From the NCBI GenBank assembly GCA_041498975.1, contig JBGQJI010000009.1, forward strand, positions 1 to 32,825: a stretch of 32,825 bases of DNA, in the 5' to 3' direction. The notes beneath the pieces were generated by a model. That model ran no database searches. It was not told the origin of the DNA and saw nothing but the letters and a program-made list of their open reading frames with translations. The DNA comes from Candidatus Methylomirabilis sp. GTDB lineage: Bacteria > Methylomirabilota > Methylomirabilia > Methylomirabilales > Methylomirabilaceae. Position 1 is the stretch's first letter; the number at the start of each line of letters is the position of its first letter. This document shows, piece by piece, positions 26,489 to 30,920 of the stretch. The position numbers and the translations under genes were made by a program.

Positions 26489-27706
26489 ATGGCAGCCATC
26501 CAGCCGCCGAAAATCTATACAGTCAGCGACCTCACCGCCGAGATACGAGCCCTTCTCGAGGACTCTTTTTCCGGAATCTGGGTGGAGGGGGAGATCTCCA
26601 ATTTCCACCATCACAATACCTCGGGTCACATCTACTTCACCCTGAAGGATCAGGAGAGCCAGATCCGCGTGGTGATGTTCAAGGCGCAAAACCGGCATCT
26701 CAGGTTCCGACCCCAGGATGGGCTGGCCGTCCTGGTGTACGGCGAGGTCGGCGTCTATGAGCGCCGCGGTGAGTATCAGCTTGTGGTGGAGTACTTGGAG
26801 CCGAAGGGCCTCGGCGCCCTGCAGCTCGCCTTCGAGCAGCTCAAGCAGAAGTTGCAGGCAGACGGGTTGTTCGATGAGGCCCGGAAGCGACCGATCCCGA
26901 TGTTGCCCAGGCGGATCGGGGTGATCACCTCCCCTGTTGGCGCAGCCATCCATGACATCCTGCACGTCCTCCGCCGGCGCTTCGCCGGCGTCGATGTGCT
27001 GATCTACCCCGTGGCGGTTCAAGGTGACCAGGCGGCGCCGGAGATCGTCGATGCCCTTCGGGAGCTGAACCGGCGCGGCGGGCTGGACGTCTTGATCCTG
27101 GCGAGAGGTGGCGGTTCGATCGAGGACCTCTGGGCCTTCAATGAGGAGATGGTGGCCAGGGCGATCGCCGACTCCAAGATCCCGGTCATCTCGGCCGTCG
27201 GCCATGAGGTCGATTACACCATCGCCGATTTCGTGGCCGACCTTCGGGCTCCCACGCCGTCGGCGGCAGCGGAGCTGGTGATCGCAAAGAAAGATGAGCT
27301 GGCACAGCGACTGGACGACCTGGAGGCGCGGATGACCGGTGTCGTTCGGTCCAGGCTGCACGCGCTGATGGTGCGGATGGCCGCGTTGGATCGCCATCTG
27401 CGGCTGCTCAATCCGATCGAGCGGATCCGCCAGCAGCGCCGTCGCCTGATGGAGCTCTGGAAGGACCTCACCGGCTGGGCGGATCGGCGCCTTGTCGTGT
27501 CGTCCGGACAGCTTGGGGCCCTCGCCGGTAAGCTGGACTCTCTGAGCCCCTTGGCCATTCTGAGTCGAGGCTACAGCATCTGTTTGAGGTTGCCCGGCCA
27601 CGAGATCGTGAAGGAGAGCGCCGGGCTGGTTGCCGGCGCCGAGGTCGAGGTGCGCCTGCACCGTGGAAGTCTGTGGTGCGACGTCCGCGAGGTCAGAGCC
27701 GAGTAG
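26489..27706 (+). CDS. xseA: Exodeoxyribonuclease VII large subunit
   Basis: WVEGEISNF, SGHIYFTLKD, IGVITSP.GAA, ARGGGSIEDLWAFNEE, SAVGHE.D, RAPTPSAAAE, LSP..IL.RGY. Confidence 0.97.
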   Translation: MAAIQPPKIYTVSDLTAEIRALLEDSFSGIWVEGEISNFHHHNTSGHIYFTLKDQESQIRVVMFKAQNRHLRFRPQDGLAVLVYGEVGVYERRGEYQLVVEYLEPKGLGALQLAFEQLKQKLQADGLFDEARKRPIPMLPRRIGVITSPVGAAIHDILHVLRRRFAGVDVLIYPVAVQGDQAAPEIVDALRELNRRGGLDVLILARGGGSIEDLWAFNEEMVARAIADSKIPVISAVGHEVDYTIADFVADLRAPTPSAAAELVIAKKDELAQRLDDLEARMTGVVRSRLHALMVRMAALDRHLRLLNPIERIRQQRRRLMELWKDLTGWADRRLVVSSGQLGALAGKLDSLSPLAILSRGYSICLRLPGHEIVKESAGLVAGAEVEVRLHRGSLWCDVREVRAE

Positions 27707-27717
27707 AGGTCGTGGGA

Positions 27718-27981
27718 GTGCAAGAGCTCCGATTCGAGGAGGCGCTCAAGCAACTCGAGGCGATCGTCTTACGCCTCGAGATCGGAGACCTTCCCCTTGA
27801 GGAGGCCCTCTCGATCTTCGAGGAGGGGATTCGATTGACGAAACTCTGCTCGCAGCGGCTGAGCGAAGCGGAAAGCCGGGTGAACATCCTGGTGCGGAGC
27901 GCCGAGCCCTCCTCCGGCGGACTTGAAGAGCGCCCCTTCGAAGAGGAGGAGGGCGAGGAGGAGATGAGGGGACGTCGTTGA
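27718..27981 (+). CDS. xseB: Exodeoxyribonuclease VII small subunit
   Basis: FEEAL..LE.IV..LE.GDLPLEEAL..FEEG..L...C...L..AE. GTG start after GAGGT. Confidence 0.95.
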   Translation: MQELRFEEALKQLEAIVLRLEIGDLPLEEALSIFEEGIRLTKLCSQRLSEAESRVNILVRSAEPSSGGLEERPFEEEEGEEEMRGRR

Positions 27982-28877
27982 CGCCTGAGGCGCTGGGGCA
28001 CTACCTCGAAGAGCGGCGGCGGCTGGTCGACGAGGCTCTGGGGCGATTTCTGCCCGAGGCAGGCGACCACCCCAAGGAGATCCACGAGGCGGTCCGCTAT
28101 TCTGTCTTCGCCGGCGGAAAGAGGCTGCGACCGATCCTGGTCCTTGCGGCGATGGAGAGCGCAGGCGGTCACCTGGAGCGGGCGCTTCCGGCGGCAGCCG
28201 CCATCGAGTTGATCCATACCTATTCCCTGATCCACGACGACCTGCCGGCCATGGATGACGACGATTTTCGGCGCGGCCGGCCGACCTGCCACAAGGTCTA
28301 TGGCGAGGCGATGGCCATCCTCGCGGGTGACGCCCTGTTGACCCAGGCCTTCATCCTCCTGTCGGGCGAGAACCCGTCGGTTCCGGTGGATGCCGGGGCC
28401 CGACTCAGGGTCATCCACGAGATCGCCCAGGCGGCGGGCAGCAAAGGCATGGTCGGCGGCCAGGTGGTGGATATCCTCCATGAGGCTCGAGAGATCGACC
28501 TGCCGACCCTGCAATACGTGCACACCCACAAGACCGGCGCGCTGATCAGGGCATGCCTGCGTGTGGGCGGCATTCTCGCATCGGCCGGGCCCGAGCAGAT
28601 GGAGGCGCTCACCAGGTATGGCGAACGGATCGGACTCGCCTTCCAGATCGTGGACGACATCCTCGATCTGGAGGGGAGCCTGGAAGCGCTTGGGAAGCGG
28701 GCGGGGAGCGACCTGCGCAAGAAGAAGGCCACCTTTCCCGCCCTTCTCGGGATCGAAGAGTCGCGGCAACACGCCCGTCATCTGGTGGAAGAGGCGACGC
28801 ACGCCCTGATGGTGTTTGGCGACCGGCGGGCGGCGCTTGAGGCGATCGCCGATTTCGTCGTGACACGGCGGAGGTGA
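27978..28877 (+). CDS. ispA: Polyprenyl (farnesyl/geranylgeranyl) diphosphate synthase
   Basis: GGKRLRP, FARM HDDLPAMDDDDFRRG, KTGAL, SARM FQIVDDILD. Confidence 0.93.
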   Translation: MTPEALGHYLEERRRLVDEALGRFLPEAGDHPKEIHEAVRYSVFAGGKRLRPILVLAAMESAGGHLERALPAAAAIELIHTYSLIHDDLPAMDDDDFRRGRPTCHKVYGEAMAILAGDALLTQAFILLSGENPSVPVDAGARLRVIHEIAQAAGSKGMVGGQVVDILHEAREIDLPTLQYVHTHKTGALIRACLRVGGILASAGPEQMEALTRYGERIGLAFQIVDDILDLEGSLEALGKRAGSDLRKKKATFPALLGIEESRQHARHLVEEATHALMVFGDRRAALEAIADFVVTRRR

Positions 28878-28940: not shown

Positions 28941-28976
28941 CCCTTCCGCCTGACCTTCTCCCCCCAGGGGAAAAGG
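28941..28976 (+). repeat. REP-like hairpin, CCCTC...CCTTCTCCC family
   Basis: CCCTTCCGCCTGA followed by CCTTCTCCCC-CCA-GGGGAAAAGG. Confidence 0.65.
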
Positions 28977-28981
28977 CGGGG

Positions 28982-29947
28982 ATGAAGGAGAAGGCCAAGC
29001 GGGTTCGCCTGGACCTGGCCATGCTGGATCGGGGGCTGGTGGCAAGCCGGGAACGAGCCAGGGCGTTGATCCTTGCGGGACGTGTCCTGGTTGACGGCCG
29101 AGTGGTGGATAAAGCAGGGACGTTGGTCGCTCCGGATGCGACGATTGCGCTCAAGGCCGCCGAGCACCCCTATGTGGGGCGAGGCGGGGTAAAGCTTCAG
29201 GGCGCGCTCGAGACCTTTGGCGTGAGCGTTGCCGGGCGCGTCTGCCTTGACCTAGGCGCTTCAACCGGCGGGTTCACCGATTGCCTGCTCCGGCACGGCG
29301 CCGCCTTGGTCTACGCCGTTGACGTCGGCCGCGGACAACTTGACGCAAGGCTCAGGACTGATCCCCGGGTGGTGGTCATGGAACGGACCCATGCGGCAAC
29401 GCTCGAGCCGGCCGACTTCCGGGACCGGCCAGACCTCGCAACGATCGATCTCTCGTTTATCTCCCTCGCCTCGATTCTCCCGGTCGTGCCTCCGCTTCTG
29501 GGCGACCCCGGCGAGATCCTGGCCCTGATCAAGCCTCAGTTCGAGGTTGGGAAGGGTCAGGTTGGGAAAGGCGGCGTGGTCCGTGATCCTGAGCAGCATC
29601 GACAGGTCATCACGAACATCGGTCGGGTGGCTATCGAGTTGGGACTGAAGATCCTTGGTGCAACCCCCTCTTGCCTGCTCGGGCCGAAGGGAAACCGCGA
29701 ATTCTTCATCTACCTGAGCCGGGACCGCCACTTCGACAGGCCTGTCCTGAGCCTAGTCGAAGGGCCTGTCCTGAACGAGGTCGAAGGGCTCAGTGCGCAG
29801 CCTGAGGTCAGTCGAAGGACCTGCCCTGAGCCGAGTCGAAGGGGCTCTCCTGAGCCTAGTCGAAGGATCGGCACTGGCCTTGACCCGGCGGAAGCGGCCG
29901 AGCAAGCCCTTGGAACATGCCCTGAGCCTAGTCGAAGCCCGTCGTGA
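28982..29947 (+). CDS. tlyA: TlyA family rRNA 2'-O-methyltransferase with a repeat-derived C-terminal insertion
   Basis: S4 domain RLD...SRERA, RGG.KL, LDLGASTGGFTD, DLSFISL, LIKPQFE, GPKGNREF. Confidence 0.95.
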   Translation: MKEKAKRVRLDLAMLDRGLVASRERARALILAGRVLVDGRVVDKAGTLVAPDATIALKAAEHPYVGRGGVKLQGALETFGVSVAGRVCLDLGASTGGFTDCLLRHGAALVYAVDVGRGQLDARLRTDPRVVVMERTHAATLEPADFRDRPDLATIDLSFISLASILPVVPPLLGDPGEILALIKPQFEVGKGQVGKGGVVRDPEQHRQVITNIGRVAIELGLKILGATPSCLLGPKGNREFFIYLSRDRHFDRPVLSLVEGPVLNEVEGLSAQPEVSRRTCPEPSRRGSPEPSRRIGTGLDPAEAAEQALGTCPEPSRSPS

Positions 29948-30058
29948 GCTCAGTCGAAGGGCCTGTCCTGAGCCAGAGTCGAAGGGCCTGTCACTTCGAC
30001 AGGCCTGTCCTGAGCGAGGTCGAAGGGCTCAGTGCGCAGCCTGAGCTCAGCGGAAGGG
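29729..30058. repeat. Cluster of nested REP-like palindromic elements (24-nt unit CCTGTCCTGAGCNNAGTCGAAGGG)
   Basis: Ten forward cores start at 29741, 29765, 29801, 29820, 29844, 29916, 29938, 29962, 30004 and 30040. Two inverse halves CACTTCGACAGG lie at 29729 and 29992. Confidence 0.92.
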
Positions 30059-30065
30059 AGGGAAG

Positions 30066-30920
30066 GTGAAACGGGTCGGCATCATCGCCAAGCCGCATAG
30101 GGCGGAAGCCCGGGTTGTCCTTGAAGAGCTGCTTCCTTGGCTCGAGGCCAGGGGTGTCGAACCGATCCTGGATATCGACACTGCGAGCTTGGCCGGGAGG
30201 CCTGCTGGTCGGCCTAAGGCCGATGTGCCCGGGCTGGTGGATCTCCTCCTGGTGCTGGGGGGGGACGGGACGCTCCTTTCAGTGGCGCGGCTGGTCGGAG
30301 CGCGTGATGTGCCGATCCTCGGGGTCAACCTCGGGGGCCTCGGGTTTTTGACCGAGGTGACCCTGGAGGAGCTCTATCAGGCTCTGGACGCGGTCTTCCA
30401 GGGCACCTACGAGGTCACGCAGCGGATCCTGCTGAGCGCCACGGTACACCGGCAGGGAGAGCGGATCGCCGAGTATGTGGCGCTGAATGACGCGGTCATC
30501 AACAAGGGCGCCCTGGCCCGGATGATCGAGCTGGAGACCCATATCGATGGACAGTATGTCACCACCTTCCAGGCCGACGGCCTGATCCTCTCCACCCCGA
30601 CCGGCTCCACTGCCTATAGTCTCGCTGCCGGGGGCCCGATCGTCTACCCCACACTCCGCGCCCTTGTCGTAACCCCGATCTGCCCCCACACATTGAACTT
30701 CCGTCCCCTCGTCATCCCGGATGCCGCCACGGTCGAGATCGTGCAGGGCTCGGCAAACGAAAACGCCTATTTGACCTTGGACGGCCAGGTCGGCTTCACC
30801 CTCCGTCATCGTGACGTGATAAAAGTCGTCCGCTCAGAGCATACTATCACCCTGCTCAAGGCCCCCGGGAAAAACTACTTCCAAATCCTTCGAGCCAAAC
30901 TGAAATGGGGCGAGCGGTGA
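30066..30920 (+). CDS. nadK: NAD(+) kinase
   Basis: LGGDGT, GVNLGGLGFL, ALND, DGLILSTPTGSTAYSL.AGGP, PICPH, DGQ, KLKWG. Confidence 0.96.
   Translation: MKRVGIIAKPHRAEARVVLEELLPWLEARGVEPILDIDTASLAGRPAGRPKADVPGLVDLLLVLGGDGTLLSVARLVGARDVPILGVNLGGLGFLTEVTLEELYQALDAVFQGTYEVTQRILLSATVHRQGERIAEYVALNDAVINKGALARMIELETHIDGQYVTTFQADGLILSTPTGSTAYSLAAGGPIVYPTLRALVVTPICPHTLNFRPLVIPDAATVEIVQGSANENAYLTLDGQVGFTLRHRDVIKVVRSEHTITLLKAPGKNYFQILRAKLKWGER

Follow-up and report, generated by a model that had tools for sequence, protein, structure and literature searches.

How does a housekeeping gene come to end in a pile of very short hairpins, and what carries them there? The question is raised by the 3' end of tlyA in the window, the whole 32,825-nucleotide stretch of Candidatus Methylomirabilis sp. 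that was analysed (contig JBGQJI010000009.1, assembly GCA_041498975.1). The gene (28982..29947, plus strand, start ATG at 28982, 321 aa) encodes an S4 plus FtsJ-type rRNA methyltransferase (TIGR00478, E 3.8e-71; PF01728, PF01479) and is followed on the same strand by nadK for NAD kinase (30066..30920; NCBIfam NAD kinase models, E 6e-82). On an exact parse, 12 units, 10 on the plus and 2 on the minus strand, occupy two sites at the end of tlyA and ahead of nadK, and it is very probable that this cluster was built by stepwise insertion of a mobile unit. On the upstream side, ispA runs directly into tlyA without the dxs gene that often sits at this junction, and a degenerate C-rich/G-rich palindrome lies directly before the tlyA start (28950-28985).

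Architecture of the cluster

Site 1 (29724..29867, register plus or minus one base, plus strand) is an insert of six 24-nt units, 144 nt net rather than the 138 nt given in an earlier note on this DNA, which adds 48 residues and reads in frame, as that note had proposed, between the conserved GNREFFIYL and the native tail. What had been described as a single parent hairpin is in fact a minus-strand 24-nt sister unit within a plus-strand unit, giving three levels of nesting: a degenerate plus-strand host unit (29724..29819; halves 29724-29728 and 29801-29819) is split by the minus-strand sister unit (29729..29800; halves 29729-29740 and 29789-29800), which has a 5-nt foot and a 2-nt loop and which in turn holds two tandem plus-strand units (29741..29788), namely 29741-29764 (PVLSLVEG) and 29765-29788 (PVLNEVEG). 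Judged from the sequences, the 5' unit of this pair is likely the newer, because the 3' unit is common to the relative G015. Two stacked plus-strand units in a second open frame, with a CPEPSRR-type peptide, complete the insert (29820..29867); a similar stack is present in G014.

The native TlyA tail (IGTG...EQALG; 29868..29915, plus strand), which is conserved in orthologs with empty sites, separates this insert from site 2 (29916..30058, plus strand). There, six units make up 143 nt: three are stacked (22, 24 and 25 nt), and after them comes a 72-nt composite, again of three levels, that matches the site 1 arrangement but has one inner unit; its sister unit, the second of the cluster (29992..30039, minus strand), is split by the unit 30004-30027 and is found unsplit at the same place in G014. 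The composites 29729-29819 and 29992-30058 with their two and one inner units, as well as the five stacked units (starts 29820, 29844, 29916, 29938 and 29962), were thereby recovered as first described, and the tlyA stop (29945-29947) does fall inside a unit of site 2. Here site 2 sets the tlyA stop about 120 nt upstream of the nadK start; relatives have the two overlapping. Genome-wide, the level-1 junction exists in 81 unsplit and 11 split copies, and each of the 10 copies of the sister unit sits 3' of CAGG or CAGA on its own strand.

In an AlphaFold2 model built with 27 orthologs, the site 1 insert is disordered (pLDDT < 50 at model residues 255-287) while the native tail stays a confident helix (residues 298-307, pLDDT 81-85), such that the added 48-residue segment is predicted to be a floppy loop.

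An assembly artefact is hardly credible as the source of the cluster. Short repeats in a 241-contig metagenome assembly would be prone to it, and none of the contig pieces reaches across the whole region; yet overlapping contigs of the independent runs X1 and X2 tile 29300-30500 without differences, run X3 tiles it in the pieces listed except for 30009-30016, the units differ among themselves and relatives carry intermediate states. The cluster as read from the assembly is thus borne out by X1 and X2 and nearly so by X3. The comparison across sequencing runs consisted of assembled contigs from the four runs X1 to X4, and in one contig of X4 site 1 is shorter by 50 nt, including a 24-nt piece, with a single difference in the flanks. 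Unit number, the variation of which the earlier note had asked to check, thus varies within the species.

Anatomy and coding capacity of the unit

The unit follows the pattern CCTG-NNCT-GA-GC-NNN-GT-C-GA-AGNN over 24 nt, that is a CCTG foot, a 4-bp stem, GA facing GA, a 2-bp stem and a 3-nt loop, with no tail. The earlier description as a palindrome has to be amended to an imperfect hairpin (-0.5 kcal/mol by standard folding) of which the 4-bp stem covaries. With the stem left free, 41, 51, 54 and 55 of 56 distinct units have Watson-Crick pairs at the four stem positions and 15 more of the 56 have G-T at the first; at most 1 in 5000 shuffles reached this pairing, a figure which is not to be read as a probability as the copies are related. 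The pattern itself fixes GA opposite GA, so that its invariance is built in; these bases may form sheared tandem pairs, in which case the hairpin would be strand-specific. There are 25 different loops among 64 full copies. Sister units with compensated stems keep the CCTG foot (genome-wide, CC/GG in 14 copies and GT/AC in 4), and units with a 2-nt loop are 23 nt long with the same structural ends, which rules out a fixed 24-nt ruler.

In five of the six reading frames, at least 60 of the 64 loops leave the unit open; the sixth contains a fixed TGA, and tlyA now terminates in it. The proposal that the unit is open in at least two frames and writes new in-frame peptide into genes thus holds with frames to spare, and in-frame units were found in the conserved genes tlyA, pcrA, sufD, xseB and a peptidase-C26-like gene, the last so labelled by its motifs. 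In a crude open-frame test there was no sign of selection for a length of 3n (33/81 vs 23/61, P 0.73).

Empty and partly filled sites in relatives

The comparison of tlyA-nadK with its relatives, suggested at the outset as the way to find the empty site, revealed empty as well as partly filled states at both sites. Of 15 genus orthologs, 11 lack any insert at site 1 and one has an unrelated repeat there; G014, G015 and G002 carry different unit stacks. Site 2 is empty in 4 of the 15 and holds one old unit in 6; G014 carries a unit with a nested sister, intermediate to the state of the window, and the remainder comprises heptamer repeats in two genomes, one cut-off locus and a fusion in G002, where a deletion between site-1 and site-2 units has removed the native C-terminal tail of TlyA. 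Of these unrelated repeats, the one at site 1 is a palindrome of CCCCTC type and those at site 2 are heptamer arrays.

Beyond tlyA, 44 unit clusters from G015, G002 and G009 were compared, for 21 of which this genome offers a two-sided ortholog; 8 of the 21 differ by clean indels (24, 48 or 72 nt), and the rest are filled in both or too diverged. The peptidase-C26-like gene (contig C112) presents a ladder: the segment between the anchors counts 28 residues in 11 genomes and 36 in three, and single genomes have 41, 49 and 60. In pcrA an old decayed unit is present in 14/14 loci, with further insertions in some. The xseB gene of G015 has one in-frame unit near its start and the xseB of the window (27225-28150) is empty. 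The stepwise addition at the same junction of older copies, as the earlier note had read the cluster, is what these fill states and the peptidase-like ladder display.

Retention of the units by the host, as RNA or DNA signals in mRNA stability or nadK translation or for the added peptide, is a very improbable explanation. It would agree with the position of site 2, which abuts the nadK ribosome-binding site, and with the old unit kept at site 2 in the six relatives and in pcrA at every locus. Against it, both tlyA sites are empty in other genus members, fill states and frames differ freely, and the insert is predicted to be disordered; Rfam on 29500-30300 with E up to 10 gave six matches, all far under the gathering scores, and no family reaches threshold.

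Mode of insertion and choice of target

Removal of a unit restores the host sequence exactly and target duplication is absent; the single 24-nt indels between orthologs identify the monomer as the moving unit. It lands 3' of G, mostly RRG. As the target pattern for bacteria had fixed this G, the bias was taken from viral sites, where the base at -1 is G in 56/82 against a background of 0.29; greedy excision gives G 5' of the unit in about 90/109, an approximate value as units interrupted near the 3' end are mis-parsed.

That units insert site-specifically into older copies of their own family describes a hot spot and not a rule. In other bacteria, 33/114 targets are family-like (control 29/1140), the commonest being the junction of the window itself (17 of the 33), and in viral contigs 8/82 (control 15/820); 81/114 bacterial targets are unlike the family. 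Outside the family, units also sit in genes, in short tandem repeats and in REP-like hairpins of unrelated sequence. Hairpins in general are only weakly preferred (27 vs 14 of 112, P 0.014), and in viral contigs not significantly so.

The loops bear on how copies arise. One host repeat carries six different loops in eight filled copies, alongside 25 empty copies, and tandem neighbour units have differing loops, while in another host loops are identical in 4/4 filled copies. Some composites have clearly multiplied as wholes, and since the two window composites share their inner loop, local copying may contribute to them. A circular 24-nt template primed by homology was ruled out, as nested junctions keep fixed ends, and no autonomous version carrying a gene within the unit loop came to light, the open left arms containing only other repeats. 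Nesting can be reciprocal: the unit loop may hold a CCGTTC-type hairpin between short inverted repeats (contig C118 of this genome; L046, L590, L611, L615), in composites of 66 nt and longer, some in frame in pcrA.

These data weigh on the idea that no dedicated enzyme is involved and that template switching, slippage or gene conversion between hairpin repeats, aided by short target homology, made the cluster. Several empty sites resemble a part of the unit (the peptidase site its first 9 bases, tlyA site 1 the core), the G002 tail was lost by deletion between two units and the X4 allele could be such a deletion. However, with 81/114 bacterial and 74/82 viral targets unlike the family the ends are still the same, the 23-nt variants with a 2-nt loop keep their structural ends, the unit is near-invariant across phyla and tandem neighbours differ in their loops, and we hold this explanation to be improbable.

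Distribution across genomes and phages

The scan of the genome that had been recommended gave a dispersed motif far beyond chance, with 107 copies of the 16-nt core against none in each of three order-4 Markov genomes. A CCTG foot is present in 70 of the 107 cores, and these 70 strict copies make the genome the richest in units among 20 genus genomes, the 19 others having 0 to 39, with 18 positive. Other families of the order have few copies. Among genomic contigs at least 121 stretches hold a unit, with about 15 phylum-level groups (mostly MAG labels) among the 80 listed, and 92 stretches of viral contigs place the unit on phages as well; across phyla the unit is near-invariant in sequence. 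Single-contig genomes have 22 (G041), 39 (G042) and 33 (G044) units. A plasmid search with the composite returned short weak matches only, in 16 records. As initially conceived, the element is non-autonomous and dispersed, which the genome copies and the orthologs bear out.

Which enzyme might move the unit?

The unit has fixed ends, enters 3' of a short motif without duplicating its target and carries a 4-nt foot on the 5' side of an imperfect hairpin, all of them hallmarks of IS200/IS605 and RAYT chemistry according to the available text of PMC8266576. These traits favour the view that the mobile unit is moved by an HUH/Y1-like single-strand transferase or by a different clade of small nucleases that reads the CCTG foot. 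Such a view also agrees with unit abundance being uncoupled from the UPF0213-type cassette described below. On the other side, RAYT/IS200 TnpA (PF01797) was not found in this 85%-complete genome, and PF01797 had no match in 5/7 genus genomes with at least 20 units nor in the single-contig G042 and G045. Two-sided flanking by repeats occurs in 0 of 18 listed Y1 loci of the genus (25 in total), CCTG-footed arms near Y1 genes in 0/29, and no recurrent enzyme family was found beside units at 306 loci or between close unit pairs in 20 regions of G041-G045. A Y1/RAYT protein was rejected as the mobiliser, as no such gene was found here and none among the loci covered elsewhere was found flanked by the unit, and the wider reading with another enzyme is possible but doubtful.

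A candidate closer at hand is provided by two small GIY-YIG genes of this genome (C23:11078-11293 and C16:15537-15752), each bracketed by inverted hairpins of the same build as the unit. Their clade is UPF0213-like (PDB 1zg2 and 1ywl, E 3e-20), with an enzyme 29% identical to an Ssn-type protein. Among 80 metagenome loci of this type, hairpins with the unit core lie upstream in forward orientation in 60, downstream in reverse orientation in 57 and on both sides in 43, and cassette ends match the unit core upstream in 51/80 and downstream in 41/80. CCTG-footed arms occur near 12/80 of these genes, complete 24-nt units in 2/80 loci and the SRM pattern in the flanks of 0/80. The foot of the cassette hairpin is CCGTTCG in 42/60 (CCGTTCR-type) and not CCTG. 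By these sequence features, the UPF0213-type GIY-YIG gene and its hairpin are a candidate pair that the published SRM set does not cover, with a nuclease that would be new and site-specific for ssDNA.

Several observations stand against this nuclease as the mobiliser: the foot differs, unit number and cognate hairpin number are uncorrelated over 20 genus genomes (Spearman 0.11, P 0.65), the single-contig G041, G042 and G044 yielded no gene of the clade, with G044 lacking any small GIY-YIG, and host functions are needed to complete an insertion. Within the genus the gene occurs only in this genome and G007; past loss of the gene could explain unit-bearing genomes without the clade. GIY-YIG enzymes are known as hydrolases and are not known to act as strand transferases. 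The clade is nonetheless preferred, by analogy with SsnA, and we give it, tentatively, not quite an even chance of being the mobiliser. Of the enzyme acting in trans that the earlier note had supposed, the GIY-YIG guess thus fits the shared hairpin core but fails the copy-number data, the RAYT/IS200 TnpA was not found, and the enzyme itself is still a supposition.

Other GIY-YIG genes have neighbours of their own. Genes of a second, Ssn-like clade, in the genus as well as in G041-G045, have hairpins of other kinds at their flanks. In genus relatives (L077, L080-L083, L093) GTCATTGCGAG...GCAATC hairpins flank such genes, and the downstream copy begins at the stop codon; in this genome the 24-nt unit often sits inside GTCATTGCGAG...GCAATC repeats. 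A third small type (C203, C153; L100) has terminal inverted repeats of about 15 bp, and both copies here look degenerate or frameshifted. In G007 (C5:32654-32857) a GIY-YIG domain lies in frame within an 1181-aa reading frame, after a 20-nt palindrome starting with CCTG. A gene on contig C117 of this genome that matches a DUF559 motif adjoins palindromic repeats.

Given the preferred UPF0213-type nuclease, the following sequence of events may be envisaged. The gene-less 24-nt hairpin unit and its reverse-strand sister would pile up stepwise and free of duplication, copied as a single-stranded DNA intermediate of which the shared hairpin core would be recognised in trans by the small nuclease, with its hydrolytic nick being turned into an insertion by host polymerase and ligase. 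With CC at its start and usually RRG at its end, an inserted unit creates a target-like sequence at either new junction, which would explain stacking, and the resemblance of the native tlyA codons for L-S-R-V/I to the unit core at its own hot junction would explain the stacks in three genus genomes. At 24 nt and with five of six frames open, copies survive in protein loops and tails.

Relation to known repeat families

For Ssn GIY-YIG enzymes, the cognate hairpin is bound only when single-stranded (ssDNA), and the cut falls a few bases to its 5' side; in the available text of Chenal et al. 2025, cleavage but not mobility is shown and NTS in genes are rare, at 2% (PMC11893778). The unit shares with the NTS/SRM described there an oriented hairpin with a short unpaired 5' foot, dispersal, and a related hairpin that flanks a small single-domain GIY-YIG gene in inverted copies. 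It differs in its CCTG foot and in that the SRM pattern, in its published form, matches 0/65 units and nothing in the region of the finding, although the pattern is narrow and appears to miss the GTCATTGCGAG repeats of this genome too. Furthermore, no gene of the genus or of G041-G045 labelled cd10448 (Ssn-like), a label given by resemblance only, is flanked by the unit. The UPF0213-type cassette hairpin itself has the same core as the unit but a different foot, CCGTTCR, and its counts are uncorrelated with those of the unit.

With GTAG and CGTC REPs, as portrayed in the available text, the unit has in common a hairpin of 20-40 nt with a 4-nt tag, genome-wide occurrence, sometimes in frame as in uvrD-type helicases, and the lack of target duplication (PMC3733652). 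Unlike GTAG REPs, REPINs and RAYTs as characterised in the available parts of Di Nocera (2013) and of Bertels and Rainey (2011), its tag is CCTG, a monomer and not an inverted doublet moves, no RAYT is flanked and self-nesting is recursive (PMC3733652; PMC3116915). CGTC-1 to -4, with a CGTC/TGTC tag, an 8-9-bp stem, a 4-5-nt loop, a CCA tail and head-head dimers, differ as well, in a comparison by text only, and four supplements of Di Nocera 2013 gave no match to the unit (PMC3733652). Rickettsia palindromic elements (Ogata et al. 2000) likewise insert in frame in housekeeping genes and add peptide, according to the available text (PMC10969869; PMC3184786; PMC3733652); in contrast to RPE-1-type elements, of about 105-150 bp and restricted to a genus in these accounts, the unit has 24 nt, crosses phyla and makes long inserts by stacking.

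A classical MITE would have terminal inverted repeats and a target-site duplication, both absent here, and the ends of the unit are asymmetric. The Nostoc SDRs of Elhai and co-workers (2008) reportedly include a 24-nt in-frame nesting family without a known enzyme. SDRs of about 20 nt are apparently mobile and insert precisely into a short motif, as presented in the available text (PMC2884548; PMC4390886). Likened by description and not by sequence, these elements, described for cyanobacteria only, are probably the closest behavioural precedent. Cumulatively, the unit behaves as a micro-element of the REP/RPE/SDR type but, as judged from sequence, fails the tested defining features of SRM, GTAG/CGTC REPs, REPINs, RPEs and MITEs. 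The literature searched, its scope ending before subscription papers, figures, bioRxiv supplements and SRM tables, contained no description of the 24-nt family as DNA or peptide.

Significance

The family is distinguished by its very short monomeric unit and the constancy of that unit across phyla, by nesting to three levels for which dated ladders exist, and by a hairpin-nuclease pair that the published SRM set does not include. The full proposal, a 24-nt ssDNA hairpin that is a pan-bacterial, cross-phylum transposable unit carried by phages too and a hyperparasite of REP-like repeats, moved by a GIY-YIG nuclease of about 100 residues without a transposase and regenerating its target at both junctions while protein loops grow by 8 residues each time, is rather unlikely to hold in all its parts; if true, the unit would be among the smallest transposable units known. 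For annotation, the unit accounts for the 8-residue peptides PVLSxVEG, ACPExxRR, PFDxAQDR, PSTxLRTG and LRxxSGQA that recur in unrelated proteins. How tiny gene-less repeats are copied has yet to be settled for CGTC REPs, RPEs and SDRs alike. This family makes the question directly testable, since its ends are exact, its target follows a rule, its nesting ladders are dated and the same genome encodes a candidate enzyme that can be named.
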